Shown: piece by piece, positions 22,204 through 36,437 of the stretch
How positions within the stretch are numbered: the stretch's first letter is position 1
Layout of the letters: each line of letters begins with the position of its first letter
Assembly: GCA_965248535.1 (NCBI GenBank)
Contig: CBDFJR010000002.1
Coordinates: 992,001-1,056,000, forward strand
Source: Phormidesmis sp.
GTDB lineage: Bacteria > Cyanobacteriota > Cyanobacteriia > Leptolyngbyales > Leptolyngbyaceae
Direction of reading: 5' to 3'
DNA length: 64,000 nucleotides
Translations under genes and position numbers: made by a program
Notes under the pieces: model-generated
What the model was told of the DNA's origin: nothing
The model's input: the letters and a program-made list of their open reading frames with translations, nothing else
Database searches by the model: none

Positions 22204-22320
22204 GACGATCGCCCGCGGCCGCCGTCGAGGAAAAAACCATCAAAAAAAGAAGAAGGGCAAGACCGATAAAAGTCTTGCCCTTCTTACATTTTGCTGCATA
22301 CCCCCAGGAGAATTCGAATC
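22204..22320. repeat. Left attachment repeat (117 bp) including the displaced 3' fragment of tRNA-Glu
   Basis: Matches 36270-36386 with 4 mismatches; ends in TACCCCCAGGAGAATTCGAATC (tRNA acceptor and T-arm fragment). Confidence 0.93.
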
Positions 22321-22350
22321 ACAAATTTTGTAAACAGAGATAAAACCAGT

Positions 22351-22521
22351 CTAATGCTGTGGGGACTCTGCCCACTGTTTAGCCTTCCGTTGCCGGATCT
22401 CTGTCGCGACTTCTTCCATAGCCAGTGCCATCTCTAAGCCATCGGTCTCTAACTGCCCGATCATCAACCGCAGAAACCTTTTGTTACTCTCTACCAGAGC
22501 GATATTGAGATTAGTCGTCAT
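22351..22521 (-). CDS. Small hypothetical protein (56 aa), last gene of the element's long operon
   Basis: ATG 22521 overlaps the upstream gene end; similar to the 47-aa ORF at 22824-22967. Confidence 0.6.
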   Translation of the reverse strand: MTTNLNIALVESNKRFLRLMIGQLETDGLEMALAMEEVATEIRQRKAKQWAESPQH

Positions 22522-22837
22522 TCGCACCACTCGATCCATGCTTCTTTTCATAGCCGAGAATGCTCGAAACGCTTTCGTCTGTCTTTGCCAGCAAGACATT
22601 GAAGACAGCCGTTAAGGTTTTCATGTCAGCCATTAGTTCGTCAACTTCCTCTGACAACATCTTGATCGACTCCTTCATCTGCTCCTGGTTGCGCCTGAGA
22701 TGGTTAAAGTCTCGCTCTGCGGCATAAGCCTTTTTTTGAGAGTTGGCGTACCACTTCACCATACCGAACGCCGCAGACCCGGCACCCGCTAGAAAGGTAC
22801 TGAGGCTGATCAGGCTTTGCACATCAGGCTGATCCAT
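22511..22837 (-). CDS. Single-TM coiled-coil protein (108 aa)
   Basis: ATG 22837 after AGGAG; hydrophobic SLISLSTFLAGAGSAAFGMV followed by a heptad-rich segment. Confidence 0.7.
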   Translation of the reverse strand: MDQPDVQSLISLSTFLAGAGSAAFGMVKWYANSQKKAYAAERDFNHLRRNQEQMKESIKMLSEEVDELMADMKTLTAVFNVLLAKTDESVSSILGYEKKHGSSGANDD

Positions 22838-22967
22838 TTTGGCTCCTTGCCTCTGTTGCGATCGCTTCAAACACATCTGCCAGCGCACCCAAATCATTGA
22901 GTTGCCCGATCAAAATCTGAAAAGCGATCAACGAAATCTTTTGCTTCAATTCACGAGTAATTTTCAT
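22824..22967 (-). CDS. Small hypothetical protein (47 aa, MKITRELKQKISLIAFQILIGQLNDLGALADVFEAIATEARSQNGSA), absent from the ORF track
   Basis: Fills the operon gap; shares IGQL...A..E..ATE.R with 22351-22521. Confidence 0.6.
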   Translation of the reverse strand: MKITRELKQKISLIAFQILIGQLNDLGALADVFEAIATEARSQNGSA

Positions 22968-22974
22968 CTTTTAC

Positions 22975-23559
22975 CTAGCTAATAATTGCCCGATCGTGCA
23001 CCCGTCTCCAGTTGGTTCCGTCGCTGAAAGCCAACGTGCCCCCACCCGATTCATCCGACACATAAATAGTTGCCCCGGCTCTGCCCGACGGCGCGGGAAC
23101 GGTAGCCACCGTGCAAGAGCCAAACTGAACGAAACCAGCAACCGCCACATTTCCCGCACCGGGGCTAGGGAGAGACGTAAACGTCAGCGCGGGTGTCTCC
23201 CCATCAACCCGCAATCCTCCAAAAACCTGAACCTTTGCCGTATTGCCATCAATGGCAAAATTCATCTTCCCAGTAACCTCATTCGTGATGCAAAAACTAT
23301 TCCCGTTGCCCAGTAAATAGCTGTCGCTAAAGAAACTCCAGGCCCATGTAGACCCGTGAAAAAACCCAATCCCAGGGCTACCGGGGTGACTGATCACAGC
23401 GCGGGCATAGTATTGGTTACTGCCCGTGAACCGAACCGGGAAGGTTGACGAACTTGGATCACTCACCTCCAGATTTGTGAATTTCCCCGTGTTTGGAGTC
23501 GTTGCCCCGATCGCGCCGGGGCTACCCCAATTTGGCTCAGAGGAATGACGAACGGGCAT
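22975..23559 (-). CDS. Putative virion fibre/spike protein (194 aa)
   Basis: PGAIGATTPNTGKFTNL and C-terminal TVATVP...AGATIYVSDESGGGTLAFSDGTNWRRV motifs resemble phage fibre modules; beta/Gly-rich. Confidence 0.6.
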   Translation of the reverse strand: MPVRHSSEPNWGSPGAIGATTPNTGKFTNLEVSDPSSSTFPVRFTGSNQYYARAVISHPGSPGIGFFHGSTWAWSFFSDSYLLGNGNSFCITNEVTGKMNFAIDGNTAKVQVFGGLRVDGETPALTFTSLPSPGAGNVAVAGFVQFGSCTVATVPAPSGRAGATIYVSDESGGGTLAFSDGTNWRRVHDRAIIS

Positions 23560-23870
23560 CAGGTCAACTCCGTGATCAGCGCGTTCCCGTTGGCAGTTGC
23601 CCAGATGCCACTAATCACCCCCGTGTAGTTAAAGGGTGTCTCGTAGCAGTCACTCGGATCGAGCCGGGCTGTGAACGCTGATGAAGATGCCGTGGCCGCT
23701 AGCGCTAGATAGAGAGGCGATGTGCTCTGATTGGTGATGATCACCCCCTTTCTGGCAGCGTTAGCAGCAAGAAGCACGGTTGAGGCAGCCACAGAAGCAA
23801 CGGTGCTTAACGTGCCTGTAGCGCTCGTAGTTTGGATCGCGCCGCCCATTGACGTGTGAAATAGTGGCAT
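23559..23870 (-). CDS. Small beta-sandwich (jelly-roll-like) putative structural protein, paralog 2
   Basis: Starts MPLF; ANAARKGVIITNQS..LYL and YETPFNYTGVISGIW. Confidence 0.6.
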   Translation of the reverse strand: MPLFHTSMGGAIQTTSATGTLSTVASVAASTVLLAANAARKGVIITNQSTSPLYLALAATASSSAFTARLDPSDCYETPFNYTGVISGIWATANGNALITELT

Positions 23871-23896
23871 GGCTAGTTCTGTCCTTAGATAAGTAA

Positions 23897-24220
23897 TTAG
23901 CTCTCGATAAAACTGCGAATTGAGGCCTGTCCTTCGTCTGACTCCCAGAGTCCCCACACTTCCGTTGTCGAACTAAACGGGAATTCGTAATAGCCACCCG
24001 GCCCAATTTCAACCAGACAGTCATCAATGGCGACCCGCGCATCTACATCTAGAAAGAGCGCAACCGGGCTGTCATTGCGGATAGTCAACCCAATTCGATT
24101 GGCATCACCCGAAATGAGTTGCACTCGTGAGGCTTTCGCCTTCACTAACTCTTTGCGGATCGTGACCACCTTTCTGGTAACAGTCGAACTAGTTGAAGAA
24201 ACTCCATCAAATAACGGCAT
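23897..24220 (-). CDS. Small beta-sandwich (jelly-roll-like) putative structural protein, paralog 1
   Basis: Starts MPLF; DANRIGLTIRNDS..LFL and YEFPFSSTTEVWGLW. Confidence 0.6.
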   Translation of the reverse strand: MPLFDGVSSTSSTVTRKVVTIRKELVKAKASRVQLISGDANRIGLTIRNDSPVALFLDVDARVAIDDCLVEIGPGGYYEFPFSSTTEVWGLWESDEGQASIRSFIES

Positions 24221-24228
24221 TGTGGGAC

Positions 24229-24699
24229 TCAGGTTAAGTGGTCAATTTTGCTCTCAATCCGGCTGAGATCTGCTTGGAGGGAATCGATCAGCACTTCCGT
24301 ACTATCGACATCTGGCCCGATGTACTGATAGACAGTTAGCGTGATTTCTTGATGCCAGTAGGGCACCTCAAACCGCAGTTTGTAGTTGCTTGCCACTTGT
24401 GGCAGCATGACCAGTCGAGGGGCATTAAGCGGAATAGGAACCCGGTCAAGTTCAGCAAATCCAAAATCTGTGGCCCCGGTGTCGATCACGGGCCGGAGCC
24501 AGCCGCCCAAATACCAAGTTGACTTAGCCGTTTGGCTTGTGCAGCCAGCGACTAAAATCCGATGCTCACTCTGGACAGGTAGCGTTATGGGTGCCAGTGG
24601 TTCGTAGGTTGTCGGGCCCAAGAACCGAACCCGAAAGTATTGCCGATAGAAGAGAATCCAGTTACTAGCGTTTGCTAGCTGCAAGACGGGATGACTCAT
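24229..24699 (-). CDS. Hypothetical beta-rich protein with C-terminal coiled coil (156 aa), putative structural
   Basis: Alternating hydrophobic strands, then LIDSLQADLSRIESKID; ATGA overlap with the upstream gene. Confidence 0.65.
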   Translation of the reverse strand: MSHPVLQLANASNWILFYRQYFRVRFLGPTTYEPLAPITLPVQSEHRILVAGCTSQTAKSTWYLGGWLRPVIDTGATDFGFAELDRVPIPLNAPRLVMLPQVASNYKLRFEVPYWHQEITLTVYQYIGPDVDSTEVLIDSLQADLSRIESKIDHLT

Positions 24700-24953
24700 T
24701 GCAGCCCGACCGGAAACCCTTGACAGATAATCAGTTCAATCGTCTCCTCAACTCCCTCAACGTAAGCAAGTGGATCAATCGAGTGAGATTCAAGCAGATC
24801 CAAAACTACGTCTGGATGCTCTTTTCCGTCCAGACACGCGGCGATCGCTCTCTGTCGATCAACGTAGCGGATCATCTCTGCTCGTCGATCGGCTTCAGAG
24901 AAATCTGGATTGATAATTTCAAACGTGGTCAAGGGAAGGAGTTGATCGATCAC
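24696..24953 (-). CDS. Acidic hypothetical protein (85 aa)
   Basis: Co-oriented in the operon; 4-nt overlap with the next gene. Confidence 0.6.
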   Translation of the reverse strand: MIDQLLPLTTFEIINPDFSEADRRAEMIRYVDRQRAIAACLDGKEHPDVVLDLLESHSIDPLAYVEGVEETIELIICQGFPVGLQ

Positions 24954-25037
24954 AATGGCTTGCTTCTATTAGAGGTTAAAGAATCTCTCAACCGCAGACC
25001 ACAAAAGCTCTACGGTTGAGCAGCGCGAAGCACAAAC

Positions 25038-25559
25038 CTAGATCCGTTCAGGCGAGAGGTAAGCTCGGACGGTGGAACCCGTCGGAACGAGCAAGCCGCG
25101 AATCGTGTCGTAAACGCCCAGCTCGGTGTCACCCGCCGCCGCCTTACCAAACGGAATCGATCGGCTCGTGCCGCCATAGCTGAGATATTTCTGCTTGGTG
25201 ATGTGCGATTCTTTGACCACGCCGTTGTCTTGCCGTCCGGTGACAATGACCACACGAGCGGGTCGAAAGCCGCGAACCCGCAGAGCAGCCCCACCAGATG
25301 GCAAGGTTGCGAGAGCGTGGCTACCAAAGGAGCCTTCGTGTGCAACCCAAGCGGTTTGACTCGCACTCACCTGGAATAGATCGGATGTGGCCGCAGGGGC
25401 CCCAAACGGTTTGACAAAAAGGATTTGAGACTTATCTCGTTTCTTCCCGGTGCCAATTCCCGGTTGGCGGTTCGTCTTGCCCTCAATAAAGGCAACGTAG
25501 TTCGTGAGTGCCTGCTGGTAGCGGGCTGCCCCCGCGATTCGTGAATAGTGTCTGCCCAT
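25038..25559 (-). CDS. Basic hypothetical protein (173 aa), candidate capsid/nucleoprotein
   Basis: ATG start, co-oriented; Gly/Ala/Arg-rich with a basic N-terminal region. Confidence 0.65.
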   Translation of the reverse strand: MGRHYSRIAGAARYQQALTNYVAFIEGKTNRQPGIGTGKKRDKSQILFVKPFGAPAATSDLFQVSASQTAWVAHEGSFGSHALATLPSGGAALRVRGFRPARVVIVTGRQDNGVVKESHITKQKYLSYGGTSRSIPFGKAAAGDTELGVYDTIRGLLVPTGSTVRAYLSPERI

Positions 25560-25667
25560 GCGATGATTCTCAAAATTAAGATTGCTGCTGCATCATTTCT
25601 AGCAACGGTTTTAGAGTGTTTTGGATGGCTACGGAAGTATACTTGCGCTTTTGTTTTGAACCTTATG

Positions 25668-26477
25668 CTAAAAGGTCACTAGTGGCTTACCCAGTCCGTA
25701 GTGACCCACCAGCAAAATGGGCTTTGCTATTCCATTGATGTGCAGCTCGGCTTTACGGAATTGGACTTGAGTTGTGGGCCGCTGTCGGGGTTTCCTGCGA
25801 ACCTTGCCATAAACTTCCTGCGAGCCGGGACTCGTGGGAAATGGTTTGCGCGCTGTGTGAATCGTCAGAAGCTGTTCGTTAAAGGCGTGCCCTCGAATTT
25901 GTAGAACCTTCTCGATCACCTGCACGGCTTGACCCTCGTTCAGAACGAGCAAGCGGAAATCATAGCCGTGCTCTTTGTCGAGATAGGTCACCTTGACGGT
26001 GCCTCTCTCCCACTTGAAACCGTGGGCGGCTCCAAATAATTCTTTTATTTTGAGTGCGAGTGATTGAGCTTTACCAGGGGTCATCGTTGTTGAGGTTTCA
26101 TTGATCAATCGGAACCCGATCGATGAGTGAATAGGGGCGTATCCTTCCGCCTCTAGTTGGGGTTGATAAACCTCCTGAAAAATCAGGTGAACTTGAGGAC
26201 GAAATTTAACTTCACCCTGGTAGTCTGCAACGGGCAACGCATAGACCGGAGTTGGTAACTTACCCTCAAATACGAAGTAGAACAACATCAACCGTAATAA
26301 GGTCATATCTACGGTGTCGTCTGTGTCCATCAAACAGGCCACTTTCATCCCACTTAAGGGATTTGCTAAGTCGTCGGACGGAACATCTAAAAACGTTTGT
26401 ACTACGTTGCGATTGTGGGCACCCGTCAGCATCTCGTGGAGGTGTTGCCACGGTGAAAAATCATCAGGTAATGGCAT
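25668..26477 (-). CDS. Hypothetical protein (269 aa), putative structural
   Basis: TAATG coupling to the 867-aa gene; basic patch KVRRKPRQRP. Confidence 0.7.
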   Translation of the reverse strand: MPLPDDFSPWQHLHEMLTGAHNRNVVQTFLDVPSDDLANPLSGMKVACLMDTDDTVDMTLLRLMLFYFVFEGKLPTPVYALPVADYQGEVKFRPQVHLIFQEVYQPQLEAEGYAPIHSSIGFRLINETSTTMTPGKAQSLALKIKELFGAAHGFKWERGTVKVTYLDKEHGYDFRLLVLNEGQAVQVIEKVLQIRGHAFNEQLLTIHTARKPFPTSPGSQEVYGKVRRKPRQRPTTQVQFRKAELHINGIAKPILLVGHYGLGKPLVTF

Positions 26478-29080
26478 TACAAGTTCCTTATGTGTTCTTC
26501 GCTGGGAGTAGGTGAGGAACTGTGGGCTTTTGCGTCTGCTTCTGCCTTTGCAGTTGCCTTGTGTTCCGGTGGCTTGTTGGGGTTAGTGGCTTCAGCAAGG
26601 TCTTTACTAAGTTCTGCTGATTGCTTTGTTATTTCATCTACAGCCTGTCTACCGTTCAATATCGATTGGGCAACAAAATCGATATTGTTAACAATGTTGA
26701 GGGCATTGTTGATGTTAGTAAAAAACTTGTTGTGAAAGTTCGGATTTGGGTTAAACCATTCCATCGCACGCTGACCAATCACACCATATTTTTTAAGCGC
26801 GTTTCCGATTTTAGCGTTCCAACTTCCAATGATTTCGAGCGAACTTAAAATAGACCATCCGATATTCTGAACCGAATAAATAATGTTGGCACCTGCTTGA
26901 TAAATTCGATTCAGTGCCTTCCATTCTTTCTTCATTCCTTCCAGCGATTCCGTTCCCAATATCGACTTAAGTAAATCGTCGATTTGTTTATCGATAATTT
27001 TGTTGAGTTGAACCGGATCACCATCCTTGTCTTTAATGCCAATCACACTCAATCCATCGGCCACCATTTGCAGCGTTACAACTTTGAGGCTGTCGCATAA
27101 GAAATAGGCGTTTTGTACTGTGACAATGAACGTCATCACATTCAACAATCGATCCAAGTGGAACCACTCGCTGAACTTGCCCAAAAACCCAGAAATGCCG
27201 CCGGGAACTTGATTACCTAACTTGGTATTGATGGTGTTCAACAGAGCTAGATCTGCCACGTTTAACCCAGCGTCAGCAACTTTGCCCAACTTGTCGAGAA
27301 TCGATTGCTGTCCGTCCTCCAAACCAGCCATACAACCGTTCTGGCATTTAGGTTTAGTGCCGATCGGGGGTTTGGGTGGCTCCTTACTCTTAGTGATGTC
27401 ATCTGCGGTCTGTGGGTCGATCGTGCCCTTGGGCCCGGTCGGTCTGGTGAAGATCAGTGGCGGAATAAGTGCTAGCGGCGCTAGCGGCGCAAGAGAGTCT
27501 TTATATTCTTCTAGGGGATCTGTTTTAGGTTTTGTCTTGGGAGGCGTGGGGTTGAGCGGGTGAAGGCGAACCGGGTCGCCACCGATTTGCTTGTCAGGAG
27601 ATAGCGGACTACCCGAAATCGTTGCAGTGACATCTGCCTTTCTTGCGGGGAAGATGCCCCGATCGTTCAACCGTTGCTCAGGAGTTTGAGGCGTTGTTGG
27701 CTGAAAGGAAGGAGGCGTGGGGCTAAGGTCTGGGATGGTTGGCAGTTTCGGCGTTTCGGTCGGGTTGAACGCGGGAAAAATTGGTGCGGTTGGATTTGCG
27801 TCTCGCTCCTTCTTTTCTTCCTTCAACGGGTCGAAGGGGGGTGGATCTAGAAATGGAGTGGGAGCGATCGTGGGGGACGGTTGATGAGGTGGCAAGAAGT
27901 CATCCGGGCCAAACAACCTCATGGGGGGAGGCAGATCAACGCCTGGTGGCAACTCAGGATCGGAGGGATTGGGAGGGGTTCGCCCTGGCGCTGGCCCAAT
28001 AATTTCAAGTGTCCACGGCTCAATTAACGCGGCACCATGCGAGACCTCCAGAGGTGTAATCGACTTGAAAAAACTCCAGCGAATTGAATAGGTATCGGTT
28101 CCCTCTCTTAAAAAAACCTGATTGAGAGAGTTGTCTCTCCTTGGGCCTTGCGTGATGTCGTATCCCAGAACTTGCAAGGTCAAATACGTCCTGTTGTTCG
28201 GGGAATAAAATTTGATTAGAGTCTCGACTGGAAACCAGGCTTTTGATTCAGCGTTTGGTTTGCCGTCTGAGGGGTTGTCTTGATGATCAGGCTCGAACCG
28301 CTTAAACGGATTCAACCAATCAGGGATACCCATATCTCTGGTCTGCTTCTCAGCTTTCCGCATGGCATCCCCATATCCGGCCTTTTCAGCGGCCCATTTC
28401 CCGAAGTCGAGAGCTTTCTGGGCTAGGGTCGGGTTGAGGGCTTGATGCTCAGGGGAATACTCGCCACCGTGACCAATTTTATTCAGCGTATCGGCATATC
28501 TAGAAATACCATTAGCCCAGTTCGGGGGAAAACCAGCAGTCTTTAAGAGTTCCTCTAGGTTTTTTCTACCCTGCTCGTGAAACTGATTAATTTGATCGCC
28601 CACAATCGGATTGAGCAATCCCGGCCCTAGCGCACGCGGATCAAGAACTCCCTTCAAATTTCTCGCAATGCGAGAAGAGAGCGGCCCGGCGATCGGGGGC
28701 GCAGATATTGGGTTACGGTTGCCCAACTGAGTAGCCGGGCCATCTCCCACTAGGCGGTTAATGCCCCGCTCGAAAAAGTTCGGACTGCGGGGTGCTAAGG
28801 GATTGGCACCGCCGCCGCCCGGTGAGATTTTCTGACCCGGTATTAGAGAGCGATCGATGTTGGGGTTGTTTTGAAGCGGTCGAGCGGTGTTGAAGCCCTG
28901 GTTGAGTCGAAACTCACGCAAAACCCCGTTGTCATTGACGGCTTTAGGTGCGACGAGTGGCGGTGGCGGTGGATATTTGGGCTTAAAGTAGCCGTTGCCT
29001 TCGTTTGCAGCAGGTTTGTAGAGAGTCCTCTCAAGCTGCGCCCGGGCCGATAAAATTTCGAGATCTTTGGGGGATACCAT
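26477..29080 (-). CDS. Large Pro-rich protein (867 aa) with helical C-terminal region; putative adsorption/entry protein
   Basis: Long ORF coupled by TAATG at both ends; central Pro-rich linker, CQNGC, then amphipathic helices. Confidence 0.75.
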   Translation of the reverse strand: MVSPKDLEILSARAQLERTLYKPAANEGNGYFKPKYPPPPPLVAPKAVNDNGVLREFRLNQGFNTARPLQNNPNIDRSLIPGQKISPGGGGANPLAPRSPNFFERGINRLVGDGPATQLGNRNPISAPPIAGPLSSRIARNLKGVLDPRALGPGLLNPIVGDQINQFHEQGRKNLEELLKTAGFPPNWANGISRYADTLNKIGHGGEYSPEHQALNPTLAQKALDFGKWAAEKAGYGDAMRKAEKQTRDMGIPDWLNPFKRFEPDHQDNPSDGKPNAESKAWFPVETLIKFYSPNNRTYLTLQVLGYDITQGPRRDNSLNQVFLREGTDTYSIRWSFFKSITPLEVSHGAALIEPWTLEIIGPAPGRTPPNPSDPELPPGVDLPPPMRLFGPDDFLPPHQPSPTIAPTPFLDPPPFDPLKEEKKERDANPTAPIFPAFNPTETPKLPTIPDLSPTPPSFQPTTPQTPEQRLNDRGIFPARKADVTATISGSPLSPDKQIGGDPVRLHPLNPTPPKTKPKTDPLEEYKDSLAPLAPLALIPPLIFTRPTGPKGTIDPQTADDITKSKEPPKPPIGTKPKCQNGCMAGLEDGQQSILDKLGKVADAGLNVADLALLNTINTKLGNQVPGGISGFLGKFSEWFHLDRLLNVMTFIVTVQNAYFLCDSLKVVTLQMVADGLSVIGIKDKDGDPVQLNKIIDKQIDDLLKSILGTESLEGMKKEWKALNRIYQAGANIIYSVQNIGWSILSSLEIIGSWNAKIGNALKKYGVIGQRAMEWFNPNPNFHNKFFTNINNALNIVNNIDFVAQSILNGRQAVDEITKQSAELSKDLAEATNPNKPPEHKATAKAEADAKAHSSSPTPSEEHIRNL

Positions 29081-29385
29081 TAGTTCTCTTTGAAGGCGGT
29101 TGGGATAGCGACGTTAGAGAATTCTTTTGCAAACATCCAGAGCTTCTTGGTGCGATCGCTGATGAAGTTAGGGTCAACGGCAAATGAGGAGCGAATCAGC
29201 AGACGGTTGGAATTGTCGGCGGCGCTAAAAATTCCGGTTTGCATCACAAACTGGGCTAGGTTTTCAGCCTCTAACACAGCCAGAGAGGGATTGATGCGAT
29301 CAAGGGTCAGTCCGCTCCAGGCGTGAAGCTGCTCAAGCGTGACGATCGAGTTGGGGATATCCGTAGCTAGGTTAATGACAGTCAT
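29080..29385 (-). CDS. Hypothetical protein (101 aa), first gene of the long operon
   Basis: ATG start; stop overlaps the start of the 867-aa gene. Confidence 0.7.
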   Translation of the reverse strand: MTVINLATDIPNSIVTLEQLHAWSGLTLDRINPSLAVLEAENLAQFVMQTGIFSAADNSNRLLIRSSFAVDPNFISDRTKKLWMFAKEFSNVAIPTAFKEN

Positions 29386-29596
29386 AGGAAGAGGTAGTAA
29401 ATGTGACCTCTACAGCGTTCCCATACCGAGACTCATCTGTATTACCTGAGTCCGCGTACTACATCCAGTGGACTAAAAACGGACTAAAAAGGGCTTGTAG
29501 CACGAAACTACAAACCCTGAAAGTGTGATTCTCCCGTGACAGTCGATCACCGGAAAGCTGATTCTCTCGTTGGACTTCTGCGGCAACTGCAACGGT

Positions 29597-29845
29597 TCAA
29601 GAGGGATTTCCAGCGAATCTATAAAATCTCTGTCTCATTCCGCCACGCTTATGTAAACGCACCTCATCCCAGTAAGCGACAACAAATCCCTTTCTCTCTA
29701 GTCTCCACATCGTCGTGGTGAAAATTTCATAGCCTAGCTGCTTTTGCAGCATTGGAGCCGTCATCGGGCAATCAAGCAAGGCAAGTAAAATTTGTCTGTC
29801 ACGGTCTTTAGTGGCGACCAGGTTAAACCACAGGGATTTGAACAT
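29597..29845 (-). CDS. PadR-like winged-helix regulator
   Basis: QILLALL...TTMWRLERKGFV..W...GGMRQRFYR; ATG 29845 after AAGGA. Confidence 0.7.
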   Translation of the reverse strand: MFKSLWFNLVATKDRDRQILLALLDCPMTAPMLQKQLGYEIFTTTMWRLERKGFVVAYWDEVRLHKRGGMRQRFYRFAGNPS

Positions 29846-29858
29846 TTCCGTTCCTTGA

Positions 29859-30182
29859 TCAACGCCGATCGCGAATAATATCCCATTTGATCTTGTCCCA
29901 AATCCACGCATCTGACTGGTGAGGGTAGCCCGCTCTCAGGTTGTCATAGAGTCGATAAGCCGTCTCTTTGTTGTGAGTCAAAGCGATGATCTCGATCGGC
30001 ACTGGGATGATGCCAAAGTCGAGTTCGCGGGTTCGAGGTTTTGGCGCACGTCGCTTGCGTTGTCTAGGCTGAGGGTTTCGTGCGCCTCTATCGTAAGCCT
30101 CGTTGATCAGGAAGAACATCAAGAAAATCGAGCCGATCACCGATAAGATGATCGCCAACGCTGTCGGCGGATCTAGTTTCAT
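29859..30182 (-). CDS. Membrane-anchored hypothetical protein (107 aa)
   Basis: N-terminal TM, basic linker, C-terminal PHQSDAWIWDKIKWDIIRDRR. Confidence 0.65.
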   Translation of the reverse strand: MKLDPPTALAIILSVIGSIFLMFFLINEAYDRGARNPQPRQRKRRAPKPRTRELDFGIIPVPIEIIALTHNKETAYRLYDNLRAGYPHQSDAWIWDKIKWDIIRDRR

Positions 30183-30298
30183 GGGAAGAATAGCGCGTAG
30201 GTTAGGACAAACCGGATTCAGTCCCTCTCAGAGCTAACTGAGGGGGACTTTGCTATTTATCCCAACGGGGCGAGCACCCTCCCCAGACGATCGCCGTT

Positions 30299-32169
30299 TC
30301 AACTCTGCAAGTCGGCTTTGTGATAAATCTGTACGTCATTTATCGCAAACACGCTATTTCGACCCGTCACCTGGTTTCGCACTCGAATGCGATCGCCCTT
30401 GATCTCCAGCACCCTGCTAGGTTGACGCAACTCATCAAAGAAGACTTCCCCTACAAATTTGATAGGAATTGAGCTTGCATCTTTCTTACTTCCCGGTAAT
30501 TCCTTGGATGGTGGCTTGTCACTTCCGGCACGAAACCATGTAGCTGAGGTGTTAGCGATGATGATGTCACCAGGCGCAATCGAATGATCGCCATTGTCAA
30601 TTGGAGGGGGGGCGATCATTAGGCGATCATTAGGTCGATCATTAGGTTTTTCCTTATTTAATGCGGGGGTGAGGGGGTTAATGATCGGTCGATCGCCATT
30701 TTCGGGGTTTCTCAACAGTGAAATTTTTTCATTTTGGCGATCGCTCGGATCACTCACCCCTTCAGATGGCGGTATAGCGTTGTTTTTCGAGTGATCGATC
30801 GAGTGATCGCCGAGCGATCGCGGGTCAATCTGGCGATCACTCGATCGCTTGGTTCCGACGTAGTAAAGCATCGTGCTGCCCTGTCCTTTTGGGCACCTCG
30901 ATATCAAACCTTTGTTCCACATCTCCTTAACGACTTTCCTGATCGTGTTCTTGTGATTTGGAGGTGATGGGCTAGCTCTTCCACTTCGTAGGGCAAGCCA
31001 TAATGCTCATCCTCGTTTAGCCAAAGTTCGATCCGCTTTTCGGTGTGGGCTGTCTCTTCTTGTCCCTCATCTCCCTCCTTCCCTAGATACGCAAAGGTAA
31101 ACGCCTCTTCATCAAACTGGAACTTATAGCGCCCTGGTGGTCGGCCCATTCGAGTTTTCTGAACTCTCAGCACTCGTTCCCCGCTACTTTCATCAGCGAC
31201 GGTTAAACCCCACACCTCAGAGGCTGAGTTGTAGAGGGCTTTGGTGCCGCGTGACTCCCCTTCTGAGTTGGAGTGGTGAATCACGGCAAAGGTGCAGCCG
31301 TAGCGATCGCCCAAGTCATTCAGCTTGAGCATGAAGCGGGCATACTCGGTATCGTTCTCACTGATCAGCGTGTTTCGGTTAACGGAGGTCACCGAGTCGA
31401 TCATGCAGAACCTAACCGGATCACCTGCTTCTTTGTAGGACTTAAGGTAAGCCTCAAGCCGAGCCATGTTTTCAATTTGCCAGCCGGGAACGACGCGGAC
31501 GGGGTGATCATTGGTGAGTTGGCGGATCTGCATTCTCTCGCTGGTCACGACGACGGGTTCGTCAGACTGCATGACTAAGACTCGACCCTGAGCCACGGGG
31601 TAGCCGTTCCAGGGTTGCCCTTTGGCGATGCACTCAATCAGTTCGTAGAGCATCAATGATTTGCCCGCGCCGCCCATCGCGTGAAGTAAGAGCACGATGC
31701 CTTGCGGAATCCAGCCACTGACGACCCAATCTTTGACGGACTGGCAGAGTTTCCCTAGATCTTCAACGCCATAGTCAATAAACGGAGTCTGGTTGATGAG
31801 TGCTTTGTAGTAGCAGTTCATCATGGAGTTTTTGGAGATTTTGAAGCGCTTGGAAAGTTTTTCGAGCTTGAAGTCCCTCACACCTTCATCAAGAAGAGAT
31901 TCTACTTTCTTGATCTGCTCAACCATTTTGCTAAATTCGACCTCCTCAAGGTCAATGCCATGGGGCGCTAGGAGGTCTTGAGCAATTTGATCGACGAGTT
32001 CAAGGGGAACCTCATTTTGTTTGGCGATTCGAGCTAGTTTGACCTTTGCTCTTTGAGCGTCCATCGTCAGTTCTATGCCAGCAGAGAGGATGTCCTCTTC
32101 AAACCGTCGCTGCATCTCGAATTCGATTTCGGCCCAGTGGTTTTTTTCTTTCTTGAATTCTGATACCAT
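30299..32169 (-). pseudogene. RepA/AAA_25 (SF4-like) helicase-replication gene split by a 1-nt frameshift near 30953
   Basis: Walker A AMGGAGKS, Walker B CMIDS, VIHHSN, SRGTKAL, VQKTR; a wHTH (EELAHHLQI / KNTIRKVVKEMWNKGLI) is continuous only across two frames. Confidence 0.75.
30586..30846. repeat. GATC-dense tract with three CGATCATTAGG repeats (putative origin)
   Basis: 14 GATC counted in 261 bp; repeats at 30613, 30624 and 30636. Confidence 0.7.
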
Positions 32170-32301
32170 TTGGCTATCTCACTTTTTTAGGTGTATTTGC
32201 TGTCAAAAGTTCCCTGTAAACGTTGTTTACTGGGTTTCGTGAATACACGAGAAAAAGCCTGACCTTGTTGCCTCGTAAGCGTTGGTCGGGCTTTTTGCTG
32301 C

Positions 32302-32514
32302 TTAAATGTGATTGGCGATCGCTCTAATCAACCCCTTGGCATCGTCGATCGTGAGGGATTCAAAGTCTGGTTCAGCTTCTAAGATGCCGTCTAGCTCGTA
32401 GTACCTAAAGCCTCGATTAGCCTGTGGGTAGAGCATTCGATCTGATAGTGCGCTGATCAGTTGAATCTTTTGAGTCTGGTCAAGGGAGGGGATTAGCTGC
32501 ATTAGCGGTGTCAT
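32302..32514 (-). CDS. Hypothetical protein (70 aa)
   Basis: ATG preceded by AGAGG; co-oriented with the replication gene. Confidence 0.55.
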   Translation of the reverse strand: MTPLMQLIPSLDQTQKIQLISALSDRMLYPQANRGFRYYELDGILEAEPDFESLTIDDAKGLIRAIANHI

Positions 32515-32586
32515 AAAGTAACCTCTAGGTAATTAATCAAGTTGCGATCGCGCTGCCGTCTGGGGAGTGCGATCGCTTTTTTGTGG

Positions 32587-32790
32587 TCAGTCTTGTAGAT
32601 GTTTAGGGACGAGCCATCCATCGTCCTCAGGGTCGTCGTATGGCAGGAAATCGCTGAGTTTAGACAAGACGGCTATCTGTCTATCTAGAGGAAGTTCTTT
32701 AAACCTGGCTAGAACCTCTTCTTCTATCGCCTCTGGGTCATTGAGGTCTAGCAGATCTTCTTGTCTGGCTTTCCAGTCTTGCTGGGTCAT
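32587..32790 (-). CDS. Acidic hypothetical protein (67 aa)
   Basis: ATG preceded by AGGAG. Confidence 0.6.
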   Translation of the reverse strand: MTQQDWKARQEDLLDLNDPEAIEEEVLARFKELPLDRQIAVLSKLSDFLPYDDPEDDGWLVPKHLQD

Positions 32791-32973
32791 TTGACACTCC
32801 TAAAAATGGCTGAATTGATCAAGGGGCAACGGTTTGAGCGATTATTGGGGGGCAGTGCGGCTAGCTCTAGAGATGGGGATTTCCATAGATAGCTGCTGCG
32901 TACCTCTAAACAACGTTCTAGGCAACGTGTGCTGATACACACGGTCACTTCGTGCTGTTTGTTGTTTAGCGGT

Positions 32974-33032
32974 AGACATTTATGTCTTGTCAAAGTTTAC
33001 CAGACAAAAATGTCTATCGGACAAAAATGTCT
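32974..33032. promoter_or_regulatory. Three palindromic operator-like sites (A/G)GACA-N4-TGTCT between divergent units
   Basis: AGACATTTATGTCT 32974-32987, AGACAAAAATGTCT 33002-33015, GGACAAAAATGTCT 33019-33032. Confidence 0.75.
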
Positions 33033-33038
33033 GGTAAT

Positions 33039-33317
33039 ATGAACGAAGATAATCCAATTCGAGGCAATGCAGCTTTGAAAGCTTTAAGGGAAAAAGCTGG
33101 ACTCAACAGAATGCAGATAGCAAAGGCTATGGGCATTACTACCCGTATGTGGCAAAGGTATGAAAACGAAGGACGACCACCAGACAAGATTGATTTCGTT
33201 CTCAAACTTGCTGCCCTTACAGATACACCTGTTGATGAGGTACTGAAACTACTAGGTTTCAAAGTCCCAGACCGAGAAGAACTGCTTTCACTTATAGATA
33301 AAAGCGCTGAAGTATGA
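33039..33317 (+). CDS. Xre/Cro-CI family HTH repressor
   Basis: LKALREKAGLNRMQIAKAMGITTRMWQRYENEG HTH; start uncertain (33039, 33027 or 32982). Confidence 0.85.
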   Translation: MNEDNPIRGNAALKALREKAGLNRMQIAKAMGITTRMWQRYENEGRPPDKIDFVLKLAALTDTPVDEVLKLLGFKVPDREELLSLIDKSAEV

Positions 33318-33473
33318 CTCGCTCACACTTCAGCGCTTGTAACGATCACATTTAGGAGAGGAGAGTTTGAATTCTAAAACCAGGGCAGAGCTGTAACTCT
33401 CCCTGGATGCTCCACAGAAGACTTAAACCACCTATGGAGACTTACATTGTCTACTCAATCGTTGACATTGATT

Positions 33474-33520
33474 AAAAAAGGGCGATCGCCTCCACTAGCC
33501 GGAAGCGATCGCCCTTTTTT
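33474..33520. terminator. Bidirectional intrinsic terminator whose stem is two HIP1 sites
   Basis: Perfect 16-bp inverted repeat AAAAAAGGGCGATCGC / GCGATCGCCCTTTTTT. Confidence 0.75.
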
Positions 33521-33544
33521 GTCTAAAACATCTCACTCAAAATT

Positions 33545-33853
33545 ATGACCCAAATCACCAAACTTAGACCCGTGCCTCGGTGGGAGTCACCCCCCAACAA
33601 TCTCTATCCAATCATCAAGCAGCAGGGCATCGACTATCAGCTAGTGCCCCTATCCCTCATTGAGCAGTTGAAAACTGATCGCGAAAATCTAGTCTGGCTT
33701 GCCACGGGCGCGGCGGCAATGGCGATCGCCGCCGCCGTCGCCCTGGTCGCGGGTGCCTTCCGGCAAGAGACAAAAGTGATGACGATCGATAAGCCCGTCA
33801 TCGTCGAAAAGCAAGTCGTCGTCCCTACCAACTGCGTTCTGTTCTGCAAATAA
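33545..33853 (+). CDS. Single-TM hypothetical protein with C-terminal CxxxC (102 aa)
   Basis: Hydrophobic WLATGAAAMAIAAAVALVAG; ends NCVLFCK. Confidence 0.7.
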   Translation: MTQITKLRPVPRWESPPNNLYPIIKQQGIDYQLVPLSLIEQLKTDRENLVWLATGAAAMAIAAAVALVAGAFRQETKVMTIDKPVIVEKQVVVPTNCVLFCK

Positions 33854-33865
33854 GGAGAAACTCAA

Positions 33866-34354
33866 ATGTCATTACTCGGAAAAACCATCTCAGCCAACAA
33901 CTATGGCGGCACCAGCATGAAGCCCAACGACGTGATGAACGTTGGCAGTCATGCCGTCACCCCCTGGAACCCCGGCGATAGCTCAGAAATTCGCACTGAG
34001 CAGGTCGTTAACCGTCATAAAAACTTCGCAAAAAAGGAGGCAGACGATCTGCGGGTCAAAGCCAAAACTCGTCAACGTCAGGCTAAAACCAATCGTCAGG
34101 CCTATAAAGCACTGACCGCGATCGAGAGGGCAGACAGTTCAGATCAAACTGCATTCCGGGGTTACCAGACCGCCGTCGCCACCGTCACCGCCGCTAAGAA
34201 AGGGGCAGACGTTTCTAAAGCCAAAGTGCTCAACGGACTCACACCCAAGTACGCCAACATGGGCTATAGCCTGGGAGCTTCCAGCGATGAAGCCCAAGTG
34301 AAAGTCCGTGAATATCAAGCGCTTTACACCGAAGTTAACAGTCGTTGGAACTAA
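33866..34354 (+). CDS. Basic helical hypothetical protein (162 aa)
   Basis: Strong RBS AAGGAG; Ala/Lys-rich. Confidence 0.75.
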   Translation: MSLLGKTISANNYGGTSMKPNDVMNVGSHAVTPWNPGDSSEIRTEQVVNRHKNFAKKEADDLRVKAKTRQRQAKTNRQAYKALTAIERADSSDQTAFRGYQTAVATVTAAKKGADVSKAKVLNGLTPKYANMGYSLGASSDEAQVKVREYQALYTEVNSRWN

Positions 34355-34373
34355 CCACCAGGAGGAAAACTAA

Positions 34374-34646
34374 ATGATACGAATGGCTAGACTCACCAAT
34401 TACGCATGGTTGGGTCTAGCCATTAGTTCTTTATTAGGGCTAATGGCTAGACACGTCGCACCGCTAGGAGTTGGAGTATGGGTCACGCTCCTGCTACTGC
34501 TATTTGGACTCGGAACTGCACTGATTGCAGGAAACCTGTTAGACCACCACTTTGGATGGGTTCAAGACACCTCATTGGCACTCGCGATCGGCTTACTCGG
34601 AATCTTCATCATAGGGAGCGTGATCGGATGGTTAATCCTGCTCTAA
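34374..34646 (+). CDS. Small three-TM membrane protein (90 aa)
   Basis: RBS AGGAGG; three hydrophobic segments. Confidence 0.7.
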   Translation: MIRMARLTNYAWLGLAISSLLGLMARHVAPLGVGVWVTLLLLLFGLGTALIAGNLLDHHFGWVQDTSLALAIGLLGIFIIGSVIGWLILL

Positions 34647-35299
34647 AACGACTGCCCTACGGCATCCAGTGGGGAATGTCGATCGGCGTAGGCATCGTCA
34701 CCTGGTTCGTTGCCGTCAGTTTTGTGCGGCTGCTACCCGCCCCATTGCAACTACTGTCGATGCTCATCCCGATCGCCTGCTTCAGCTACGGGCTTTATGT
34801 CCTTCCCCGATGGAAAGATGAAGGCAAGCGCCGCGACTTGATTGAATCCCTGAAAGAGCGCGAATACGCTCACCGCATAATGCAACAGCATCATCTCAAC
34901 ATCGCAACCGATGATATCGAGTTCAACAGCACCATGAGAGAACTTGAGGCGATGTATCCCGTCGATAACCCTGCGGATAGAACGCCATCGGGCACAACTC
35001 CACACTCACAACTGGCACTACCAGAACAAGCAACCTACCTCTTAAAAGTGCAGCAGGAGGTCATGCAATCGTGTGGCGATATTGGCTGGGCCCTTGTGGA
35101 ATGGGCAAGCGGTTCAGGCTCTAAATACTGTGGACAAGATGGATGGATTTCCGTCGAGGGTTTACGCGCTAATTGGGGCAAAAAATACGGCTTAAAAACA
35201 GACGATCTTAAAACCCTGCTATCAGCATTAGTCGGAATTCAGATCGGAGAGTGGCGCAATTCTGAACTCAAAGAATGGCGATTAATCCTAACACTTTGA
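34628..35299 (+). CDS. Two-TM protein with soluble C-terminal domain (223 aa)
   Basis: In-frame ATG 34628 overlaps the previous gene; two TM helices, a helical linker and a small C-terminal domain. Confidence 0.7.
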   Translation: MVNPALKRLPYGIQWGMSIGVGIVTWFVAVSFVRLLPAPLQLLSMLIPIACFSYGLYVLPRWKDEGKRRDLIESLKEREYAHRIMQQHHLNIATDDIEFNSTMRELEAMYPVDNPADRTPSGTTPHSQLALPEQATYLLKVQQEVMQSCGDIGWALVEWASGSGSKYCGQDGWISVEGLRANWGKKYGLKTDDLKTLLSALVGIQIGEWRNSELKEWRLILTL

Positions 35300-35317
35300 A
35301 CGCTTGCTATTTTTTGC

Positions 35318-35413
35318 GGATCGGACGATCGGACAATCGGACGGATTTGCGGATACCTAGTCCGATTTCTGTCCGATCCGGAATCCGCAAATCTGTCCGA
35401 TTTCTGTCCGATC
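35318..35413. repeat. Nested inverted/direct repeat cluster upstream of the integrase
   Basis: 20-bp inverted repeat 35335-35354 / 35383-35402 (19/20); 19-bp direct repeat at 35360 and 35395; ATCGGAC/GTCCGAT units. Confidence 0.8.
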
Positions 35414-35477
35414 TCTCTAAGTCAAATTTGACGACTGAACAGACGCTAAGAATTACTGTTAGTTGAACGCTTAATAA

Positions 35478-36335
35478 ATGGCTCGTGACTGCCGCTACTG
35501 GATTGAAAAATTTAAGGAGGATTACTTCCAGCGTGGTAGCTCTGAAACAACGTGGAGAACCGAGTATCACAAGATGCTCAAACTACTCCCGTCAGACAAA
35601 CCTTTAACTGCCAAATTACTGCACCAATTAGTAGTATCAACCGAGGTCAATACTCGCACTCGCATCCGCGCCTGCATGGTGGCCGGACAGCTTGCCCGGT
35701 TCGCGAAACTCAACTACGACCCGTCACCTTATCGAGGCAAGTATTCAGCAAAAAGTGTTTCACCCCGCAATGTTCCCAGTGATGATCTAATTGTTGATTG
35801 GTACGATCGCCTCAAAAATCCCAACTGGAAGTGGGTCTACGGGATGCTCATCACCTATGGGCTTAGACCTCATGAGGCTTTCAGACTCGACTTTGAACAA
35901 TTACGGCAGCGCGATCGCGTTCTCTGGGTTGAGAACGAAACCAAGACCGGGAGCCGTCAAGTCTGGGCCTTTCATCCTGAATGGTTTGATGAATTCGACC
36001 TCCACTTGGTGCGGCTGCCCAACATCCAGCTAGACCGAACCAACGATCGAGTAGGACACAGCGCCACCGCCTATTTTAGTGAGTTTGGCTTGCCCTTCCA
36101 TCTCTACGATCTGCGACATCGATGGGCAATCAGAACCCTCGAATATGGGCTAGATATCGGTCTAGCTGCAAAGCAGATGGGTCATAGCCGCGAAGTGCAT
36201 GAGCGCGTCTATCACCGATGGATCAACGTCACGATTCATCAGCGCGCTTACGAGTCGATATTGAGTCGAGACGATCGCCCGCGGCCGCCGTCGAGGAAGA
36301 AACCATCAAAAAAAGAAGAAGGGCAAGACCGATAA
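35478..36335 (+). CDS. Tyrosine recombinase/integrase
   Basis: YGLRPHE (R), KTG (K), YDLRH, MGH and VYHRW (Y) catalytic motifs; adjacent to the tRNA att site. Confidence 0.93.
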   Translation: MARDCRYWIEKFKEDYFQRGSSETTWRTEYHKMLKLLPSDKPLTAKLLHQLVVSTEVNTRTRIRACMVAGQLARFAKLNYDPSPYRGKYSAKSVSPRNVPSDDLIVDWYDRLKNPNWKWVYGMLITYGLRPHEAFRLDFEQLRQRDRVLWVENETKTGSRQVWAFHPEWFDEFDLHLVRLPNIQLDRTNDRVGHSATAYFSEFGLPFHLYDLRHRWAIRTLEYGLDIGLAAKQMGHSREVHERVYHRWINVTIHQRAYESILSRDDRPRPPSRKKPSKKEEGQDR

Positions 36336-36386
36336 AAGTCTTGCCCTTCTTACGTTTTGCTACATACCCCCAGGGGAATTCGAATC
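36270..36386. repeat. Right attachment repeat (117 bp)
   Basis: Copy of 22204-22320; contains the integrase C-terminus, a terminator hairpin and the tRNA 3' end. Confidence 0.93.
36316..36351. terminator. Terminator hairpin between the convergent integrase and tRNA-Glu
   Basis: AAGAAGGGCAAGAC / GTCTTGCCCTTCTT 14-bp stem; adjacent A-run gives a U-tract on the minus strand. Confidence 0.75.
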
Positions 36387-36437
36387 CCCGTCGCCTCCGT
36401 GAAAGGGAGGTGTCCTAGGCCTCTAGACGATGGGGGC
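36365..36437 (-). tRNA. trnE: tRNA-Glu (TTC)
   Basis: Reverse complement GCCCCCATCGTCTAGAGGCCTAGGACACCTCCCTTTCACGGAGGCGACGGGGATTCGAATTCCCCTGGGGGTA folds as a cloverleaf. Confidence 0.97.

Follow-up and report, generated by a model that had tools for sequence, protein, structure and literature searches.

Positions 22204-36386 of a 64,000-nucleotide stretch of the Phormidesmis sp. contig CBDFJR010000002.1 (the window) probably hold an integrated temperate virus-like element, whose late operon would build an extracellular particle, or a device for adsorption and injection, from proteins of unknown fold. The block is 14.2 kb long, 89% coding and adjoins the tRNA-Glu(UUC) gene of its host, a filamentous cyanobacterium. 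It belongs to a widespread, undescribed family present in about one in ten sampled cyanobacterial genomes, and literature searches, at the level of titles and abstract openings, turned up no account of it. Few temperate viruses are known in cyanobacteria, and virus discovery relies on a handful of hallmark genes. The family carries none of these genes. Its members, if they are autonomous viruses, would be invisible to current virus-detection pipelines.

An earlier interpretation made from the letters of the window (the sequence-only reading) had named an integrase, a helicase and a tightly coupled 7-kb operon, and Pfam and PHROG matches, together with 11 overlapping or closely spaced open reading frames (ORFs), confirm all three. 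The 23 window ORFs were scanned with Pfam at curated cut-offs and with PHROG profiles; among relatives, 266 ORFs from 33 loci were scanned with Pfam and 115 ORFs with PHROGs. Loci of relatives are referred to by L numbers and genomes by G numbers.

Integration at a tRNA-Glu gene

The block is bracketed by a direct repeat of 117 nt (97% identity by alignment), which consists of the last 22 nt of the tRNA-Glu gene and the 95 nt downstream. The two copies are as follows.

22204-22320, unstranded: left repeat copy, with a displaced tRNA-Glu 3′ fragment (22299-22320), a terminator hairpin (22250-22285) and an integrase 3′ leftover (22204-22269)
36270-36386 and 36365-36437, minus strand: right repeat copy, covering the 3′ end of the intact tRNA-Glu(ttc) gene, and that gene

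Attachment (att) repeats had been claimed here. A repeat at tRNA-Glu is indeed present, but it is not a pure att core, being partly native host sequence and partly integrase leftover. In a genome of the same genus (G007), tRNA-Glu stands without the element and is followed by host genes, including an exonuclease III-like ORF. Window positions 22245-22320 match this element-free site at 94.7% identity over 76 nt, of which 54 nt lie past the tRNA gene; the repeat is therefore in part native attB-side sequence, to which the tRNA terminator hairpin belongs. The first 41 nt of the left copy (22204-22244), and the sequence on to 22269, are a copy of the final ~22 integrase codons, and the relative L020 carries a 108-aa (amino acid) integrase C-terminal remnant at its far end (L020:17107-17433). 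Such leftovers are probably the scars of serial integrations at the same tRNA-Glu gene.

Syntenic relatives occupy tRNA-Glu in G002 and G006, with integrases 84-88% identical to that of the window; the same identity range applies to the integrases of loci L011 and L020, both also at tRNA-Glu. As G002 and G006 carry relatives and G007 does not, the element is polymorphic among congeners and site-specific.

The late operon and its conserved core

Eleven minus-strand ORFs run from 29385 to 22351 over 7 kb and encode, in order, proteins of 101, 867, 269, 173, 85, 156, 107, 132, 194, 128 and 82 aa, with start/stop overlaps at 29080, 26477, 24696-24699 and 23559. None of the 11 has a Pfam match at cut-off or a significant PHROG match. 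The counts given below refer to 13 fetched loci searched with iterative hidden Markov models (HMMs) and, where stated, to 29 phylum-wide loci, which are stretches of ±1.5 kb and include the window's own.

29490-29518, minus: terminator-like hairpin between the early and late operons (12-bp stem, then a T run)
29080-29385, minus: 101-aa protein, first late gene and the best conserved of all (identity of 80-88% between the closest elements); family in 10 of 13 loci
26477-29080, minus: 867-aa 'BIG' protein whose N-terminal part is variable, whose middle is rich in proline and whose C-terminal ~300 aa are helical and conserved; family in 13 of 13 loci, C-terminus in 20 of 29
25668-26477, minus: 269-aa core protein, with an N-terminal three-helix bundle and an alpha/beta domain by prediction; family in 13 of 13 loci
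25038-25559, minus: 173-aa basic core protein, a confidently predicted orphan fold; family in 6 of 13 loci and 20 of 29
24696-24953, minus: 85-aa acidic core protein (17 D+E against 6 K+R); family in 11 of 13 loci and 18 of 29
24229-24699, minus: 156-aa core protein with a heptad-like C-terminal tail; family in 9 of 13 loci and 18 of 29
23897-24220, minus: 107-aa protein, paralogue of the 132-aa protein; the two form one family, of which L015:2491-3129 is a fused double version
23559-23957, minus: 132-aa ORF, paralogue of the 107-aa protein
22975-23559, minus: 194-aa fibre-like protein, probably receptor-binding, similar in sequence to a phage tail fibre
22511-22897, minus: 128-aa holin-like protein with one membrane span (residues 29-47) and a coiled coil; family in 7 of 13 loci
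22351-22599, minus: 82-aa ORF, last late gene; family in 5 of 13 loci, with no Pfam or PHROG match

Two starts in this list are probably annotated too far upstream: relatives of the 132-aa ORF are 103 aa long, which places its true start near 23870, and relatives of the 82-aa ORF measure 51-66 aa, which points to an internal start.

The core of 867-269-173-85-156 aa is conserved in order across the phylum. A synteny search of the core gene set, proposed as a check by the sequence-only reading, found its families across the 13 fetched loci and, where present, in unchanged order among the 29 phylum-wide loci. Where the 173 family is not found among the fetched loci, proteins of ~180-195 aa at its position are homologous to it (hhalign probability 94%, E 1e-7). 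By family alignment, the 269 family is present in 43 of 401 genomes drawn evenly from the cyanobacterial phylum, spread over 28 of 156 genera, and a single genome can hold as many as 4 matches; among 61 related genomes, 11 hold relatives of the 269-aa protein. Large protein collections contain 37 relatives of the 269-aa protein and 58 of the 867-aa C-terminus, whereas the 173-family profile draws 631 clusters (50% identity) at E<=1e-3 and 298 at E<=1e-10, nearly all of 165-200 aa. The source names of the relatives are all 'hypothetical protein', and the organisms named are all cyanobacteria (Nostoc, Anabaena, Microcystis, Calothrix, Aphanocapsa); the closest copies come from Phormidesmis, Thermoleptolyngbya and Almyronema records. 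If the operon forms particles, a large block of 'hypothetical' cyanobacterial genes would gain a name, 631 clusters in the 173 family alone. A metagenome scan with the 101-aa protein returned three short contigs of 1-3 kb, whereas core-carrying metagenome contigs of 8-16 kb came from the wider collections, with longest-contig sizes such as 9,941, 12,658 and 13,066.

The 269 family has invariant columns at N22, P94, F100, R123, Y165, G171, G224 and A243 and no conserved histidine. Some genomes match it solely at the C-terminal alpha/beta domain (positions ~85-269), in frames of 350-524 aa, as at G079:C1:2400389-2400934 and G363:C3:419293-419853; this domain therefore exists with other N-terminal parts as well. 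In G056, a 596-aa ORF whose C-terminal domain is that of a Mu transposase breaks up the 269-family gene (L021:12024-15484), and the same locus holds two tandem 173-family paralogues of 197 and 193 aa.

That the operon is non-virion cargo of an integrative island, such as a defence or metabolic system, is very improbable. The element is an integrated island and its late genes match no Pfam family, yet no core protein shows an enzyme family and the 269 family lacks a conserved histidine; the fibre and lectin variability and the tape-measure-like giant described below are, moreover, structural traits.

Tail-like traits of the giant and distal proteins

The sequence-only reading had described a structural-looking operon with no hallmark gene of known phage classes. 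The late operon of the window indeed has no Pfam match, but it is not wholly without recognisable traits: relatives of the 867-aa protein match a tape measure and distal genes match tail fibres. Two 867-aa homologues match phrog_167 (tape measure), L022:5414-9088 at E 5.5e-14 and L018:2398-5250 at E 5.8e-5. The homologues range from ~790 to 1,224 aa, and internal repeats occur in two of them, as 84-nt tandem units (L094:11316-11507) and as collagen triple-helix repeats (L013:9843-12215). In its own genome the 867-aa protein is single-copy. The ESM Atlas links its C-terminus to unnamed clusters, cyanobacterial at 0.91 and Uroviricota at 0.80, which serves as a lead only. On this sequence evidence, the giant protein is plausibly tape-measure- or ejection-protein-like.

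A fibre-like protein had also been claimed, and residues 95-194 of the 194-aa protein indeed share 33% identity with the tail fibre protein of Burkholderia phage AH2 (E 1e-3). The variable genes of relatives carry comparable signatures, including a tail-fibre N-terminus at L023:2000-2794 (E 1e-7), fibre PHROGs in L017 and L020, and matches to F5_F8_type_C, Laminin_G_3 and the fibre chaperone Peptidase_S74. Near the end of the operon, the 128-aa protein gives the best PHROG match in the operon, phrog_1296 (holin), and a match to phrog_739 (Rz-like spanin, E 7.5e-3); its positional counterpart L012:15134-15628 matches the 'hol-like' phrog_2658 at E 1.2e-8. Release with no lysis, as had been proposed, is doubtful: in the window and in 7 of the 13 related loci, the operon closes with a holin-like membrane protein.

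This arrangement of a giant tape-measure-like protein, small proteins, variable fibre or lectin genes and a holin-like gene is the order of siphophage distal tails and F-type tailocins, and the internal tandem repeats of the giant in one relative, with tape-measure PHROG matches in 2 of 13 homologues, recall a siphophage tail module. Unlike those systems, the element has no HMM match to tube, terminator, Dit or Tal, places one small gene before the giant, and follows the giant with two proteins whose confident models have no neighbour in the PDB.

A decayed remnant of a larger tailed prophage, with the tail half kept and the head half lost, would account for the resemblance of the tape-measure-like, small, fibre-like and holin-like genes to the distal half of a siphophage late operon. 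This explanation is scarcely credible. The layout is compact in 33 loci from many genera, integrase or host genes adjoin the operon, the ORFs are intact and tightly packed, and the att repeats bracket exactly this block. A search for larger tailed prophages among relatives, which the sequence-only reading had named as a way to refute it, found none. The relatives are consistently small, about 9-15 kb, with the same core and no terminase, portal or capsid gene among 266 ORFs, and the remnant explanation is therefore unsupported.

Hallmarks of known virus classes

The sequence-only reading had recognised no hallmark of tailed, filamentous, microvirus-like or double-jelly-roll viruses. The searches, which covered ORFs of 50 aa and longer, agree: none was found by HMM in the window, by Pfam among the 266 ORFs or by fold search with two proteins.

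For Caudoviricetes, the 23 window ORFs give no Pfam or PHROG match to the terminase large subunit. A portal is matched neither in the window nor in relatives and no window ORF has a suitable size; apart from the 867-aa protein, no element ORF that lacks an assignment exceeds 285 aa. An HK97-fold capsid has no HMM match in the window, and the models of the 269- and 173-aa proteins, two of the eleven late proteins, retrieve no HK97-fold chain, which is not proof that this fold is absent. Searches for the pI/Zot-type ATPase of Inoviridae found no second P-loop ORF and no Pfam or PHROG match. The HUH Rep and large jelly-roll capsid of Microviridae have no HMM match, and there is no capsid candidate of 400-550 aa. 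The FtsK/HerA-type packaging ATPase of double-jelly-roll viruses was not found by Pfam, PHROG or a Walker A scan; in the six-frame motif scan the helicase has the sole Walker A in a real ORF of the element, as had been claimed for the P-loop. Small terminase and capsid-size redirection have no HMM match in the window, nor do tailocin tube, sheath or baseplate in the window or the relatives scanned.

The relatives give the same picture. Terminase, portal, prohead protease and major capsid families are absent among their 266 Pfam-scanned and 115 PHROG-scanned ORFs, and the 'head and packaging' PHROG rows comprise only a collagen-like match of one 867-aa homologue and two weak 'structural protein' matches, both to a lectin-domain protein (L023:900-2003, E 1.8e-4 and 3.8e-4).

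Small non-tailed temperate viruses offer another comparison. Like corticovirus-like prophages, Plasmaviridae L2 and pleolipoviruses, the element is integrated, measures ~10-15 kb and encodes small membrane proteins and mostly unrecognisable genes; unlike them, it has no FtsK/HerA-type ATPase, and no jelly roll among its two folded proteins.

Predicted structures

The 269-aa model, built from a 46-sequence alignment, has a pLDDT (predicted local confidence) of 85.6 and combines a three-helix bundle (residues 1-80) with an alpha/beta domain (92-260). Foldseek places its best PDB neighbour at E 0.015 and its best BFVD neighbour at E 2.8e-3 with a TM score of 0.36, and the ESM Atlas holds no usable match for this protein. 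The 173-aa model, from a 150-sequence alignment, reaches a pLDDT of 94.1 and a pTM (predicted global fold score) of 0.82; an N-terminal helix is followed by a sheet with one long hairpin and by two packing helices, and the best PDB neighbour lies at E 0.44. Neither model has an HK97, tube, Dit or hub neighbour in Foldseek, a missing match not being proof of a new fold. Sequence-profile searches of the PDB with the 269, 173, 156 and 101 families return nothing below E 0.26, and Pfam assigns no family to more than one of 150 members of the 173 family.

By DSSP both models are alpha/beta and neither is a jelly roll, which lends no support to the 'beta-sandwich proteins' of the sequence-only reading. 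Two more specific assignments fail on the same models. The 269-aa protein has the same length as the PM2 capsid protein and was considered as a PM2-like double-jelly-roll capsid; this is rejected on its predicted alpha/beta fold. For the 173-aa protein, neither a jelly-roll capsid with a basic arm nor a tail tube is supported by its model.

Mobility modules and the nature of the element

The genes beside the conserved core vary from locus to locus. Small tyrosine recombinases of 183-220 aa adjoin the operon in L017, L018, L019, L021, L079, L081, L083, L086, L087, L088 and L090, larger integrases stand beside it in L022, L023 and L080, and serine resolvases in L012 and L093. Primase-helicases of the VapE, DUF3854, D5_N or DUF5906 type occur in L014, L016, L078, L082, L092, L094 and L095, with fragments in L085 and L089; L084 has DnaB with AAA_25, and L023 and L087 have AAA_25. 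Integration and replication genes are thus interchangeable beside the core, which is the module shuffling typical of viruses and satellites. In five small relatives, a repeat search found no convincing pair of att-type direct repeats or promoter-flanking inverted repeats, but only heptamer-repeat arrays flanking L081 and a CRISPR (clustered regularly interspaced short palindromic repeat) array beside L083; the latter, at L083:16685-17450 in G153, is CRISPR-like, with 11 repeats at a period of ~72 nt, directly after the element-like block.

The kinship of the family is with phage-like integrative elements and satellites, and P4-like satellites and phage-inducible chromosomal islands (PICIs) are among the closest known architectures. 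The element family, at 9-15 kb, shares with them, capsid-forming PICIs included, an integrase that inserts the island at a tRNA gene or elsewhere, the XRE-type switch, an AAA_25, VapE or D5 primase-helicase and the missing terminase large subunit; integrase and primase or replicase stand together in a small island. A helper-dependent satellite would excise and replicate by its own means, travel in the capsid of a tailed cyanophage and contribute its own adsorption and injection module or capsid-remodelling proteins. This would explain why tape-measure-like and fibre-like genes are present and capsid and packaging genes of its own are not, and in L014 an HNH endonuclease heads the module. It is nevertheless rather unlikely. 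The element differs from P4-like satellites and PICIs in having no small terminase, no homologue of a capsid-size-redirecting protein and no Sid/Psu- or Cpm-like match, and the family's conserved operon of 8-11 structural-type genes with a tape-measure-like giant and fibre-like genes, an 8-kb module, far exceeds known satellites. The two folded proteins likewise show no likeness to a tail or capsid-accessory fold. In the host genome, whose completeness is 99.76%, nothing matches TerL_ATPase, Terminase_6N, Phage_capsid or Phage_portal; no resident tailed helper is therefore seen with these four head and packaging families, a lytic helper being possible.

The operon might instead be cargo that encodes a non-replicating particle or surface device, such as a tailocin-like killer, an adhesin or an injection apparatus, with the small recombinase serving for integration or as an on/off switch. 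In many relatives the stretch examined shows a 183-220-aa tyrosine recombinase and the operon but neither a replication nor a repressor gene, the tape-measure-like, lectin or fibre-like and holin-like genes are those of F-type tailocin clusters, and a genome-packaging function is missing. We regard such a device as improbable all the same: tube, sheath and baseplate lack HMM matches, the 173- and 269-aa models show no tube, Dit or hub fold, and the five small relatives have no promoter-flanking inverted repeats. The recurrent primase-helicases (L014, L016, L023, L078, L082, L084, L087, L092, L094, L095) and the XRE switch in the window, L011 and L023 point to a self-propagating element. If the operon has been domesticated, it would represent a new particle or surface system of filamentous and bloom-forming cyanobacteria such as Nostoc, Anabaena, Microcystis and Calothrix.

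The boldest form of the virus-like interpretation is that these elements are autonomous viruses of a new lineage, in which a virion made from the new folds of the 269- and 173-aa proteins would enclose 9-15 kb of DNA with no packaging ATPase and deliver it by the giant protein and fibres. We hold this as a tentative possibility. If true, roughly one cyanobacterial genome in ten would harbour a capsid architecture that falls outside all known classes, HK97 and jelly-roll included. A particle-forming element would in general add to the known virion architectures or else, as a satellite with its own adsorption and injection gear, to the known kinds of satellite, and there is a real chance that the family is categorically new, namely if its particles are made only of its own proteins.

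Several observations weigh against an integrated virus-like element that builds its own particle or device. No capsid fold is recognisable in the two late proteins folded, of 269 and 173 aa, out of eleven; there is no packaging ATPase, the sole Walker A in a real ORF being that of the helicase, and no endolysin is recognised in the element. The tape-measure evidence comes from 2 of 13 homologues, the window's own 867-aa protein having no Pfam, PHROG or phage-genome match, and the holin match of the 128-aa protein is weak (E 4.7e-4). Among 50,697 phage genomes there is no match for the 269-, 867- or 173-aa proteins, and IMG/VR yields no confirmed relative for the 269-aa protein or the 101-aa alignment queries. 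In L019, L021, L013, L081 and L083, the stretch examined shows a small recombinase and the operon but lacks a replication gene, which fits a non-autonomous or domesticated unit. The replication gene, a single 632-aa ORF in L011 and L020, is frameshifted into two in the window. Four sequencing runs are listed as containing the element, none of them recorded as RNA; in Logan contigs from three runs it is fragmented and no contig bridges or joins its ends, so that these contigs are uninformative on excision and circular forms.

Proposed mode of action

For the virus-like element that we favour, the following course can be proposed. The XRE regulator would keep the leftward early operon silent in the integrated state. 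On induction, the element would be excised by its integrase and replicated with the help of its own helicase, and transcription would continue past the hairpin at 29490-29518 to reach the late genes. The 269-aa protein, together with the basic 173-aa protein, may then supply the main building blocks of the particle or device, with the 867-aa protein as an internal tape-measure- or ejection-like component and the 85- and 156-aa proteins as adaptors. The host-recognition end would consist of the 107/132-aa paralogues and the 194-aa fibre-like protein, and the 128-aa holin-like protein would open the membrane for release.

Integration, control and replication genes

Only three of the 23 window ORFs reach a curated Pfam cut-off, namely the integrase, the helix-turn-helix (HTH) regulator and the AAA_25 protein. 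Outside the late operon and the repeats, the element contains the following features.

35478-36335, plus: tyrosine integrase, 285 aa (PF00589 E 3.6e-7; phrog_1 E 9.6e-16)
35360-35413, unstranded: two perfect 19-nt direct repeats (GTCCGATTTCTGTCCGATC), 35 nt apart, within inverted repeats upstream of the integrase gene
33545-35299, plus: four ORFs of 102, 162, 90 and 273 aa, three with membrane segments, co-conserved in L011 and L023
32982-33317, plus: XRE-family HTH regulator, candidate repressor (HTH_31 E 1.2e-10; phrog_8, phrog_3)
32974-33032, unstranded: three operator-like palindromes AGACA-N4/5-TGTCT, starting at 32974, 33002 and 33019, around the start of the HTH gene
32302-32790, minus: two small early ORFs of 70 and 67 aa with a 33-nt hairpin between them
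30299-32169, minus: replication protein of the AAA_25 / primase-helicase type, split into ORFs of 421 and 207 aa that overlap by 19 nt (30904-30922)
29597-30182, minus: two small early ORFs of 104 and 107 aa, the latter with an N-terminal membrane segment

The XRE-type gene beside three palindromes agrees with the repressor and operators put forward by the sequence-only reading and makes the gene a candidate for that role. The 19-nt repeats upstream of the integrase gene may be binding sites.

The helicase, also claimed, is supported by its AAA_25 match, but the gene is split by a frameshift in this copy. The match of the 421-aa ORF (30904-32169, minus) to AAA_25 has an E value of 5.6e-23, and that to phrog_239 (primase/helicase) one of 7.7e-14. 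Some population contigs contain an additional base behind 30953, at depths of 12.5/20.8 in run X1 and 31.1/80.1 in run X2, and this base would probably restore a single replication frame; split and unsplit forms of the gene both seem to exist in nature. Because its helicase gene is frameshifted, the window copy may be impaired in replication; alternatively, the product may function in the form of two chains. Within the 207-aa ORF, three tandem units of 11-12 nt (GGCGATCATTAGG-like) lie at 30610-30646, possibly a peptide repeat or iteron-like sites.

The 33-nt hairpin at 32544-32576 has a GCGATCGC motif at either end and a T run behind it. It recurs, 100% identical over 29-33 nt, at three other places in the genome, all within the loci L099 and L100 described below, and may be a shared terminator or control site. 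The density of GCGATCGC per kb is 0.99 in the element against 1.04 and 1.23 in the flanks, a likeness that fits long residence in cyanobacteria.

Other elements in the same genome

L099 (G000:C2:1424000-1443999) is a second, otherwise divergent element in the same genome, with an integrase (42% identity), an HTH gene, a 101-like gene, a fused double 107/132-like gene and an 831-aa coiled-coil and proline-rich protein; no 269- or 173-family gene is found in it. One copy of the 33-nt hairpin lies just upstream of its homologue of the 70-aa ORF. Its 203-aa protein (L099:10698-11309) is 59% identical to the 194-aa fibre-like protein of the window and is the best-conserved protein between both elements, as would be expected of a receptor-binding protein tuned to the shared host. 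Just before the integrase, L099 also encodes a protein with LysM and Peptidase_M23 domains.

A third locus, L100 (G000:C2:2346000-2365999), holds homologues of the 70-aa ORF, the 102-aa ORF and the HTH gene. It also contains a trio of 195-, 113- and 933-aa ORFs matching no known family, an ORF for a ParE/RelE-type toxin and a 385-nt stretch that is 77% identical to window positions 33376-33747.

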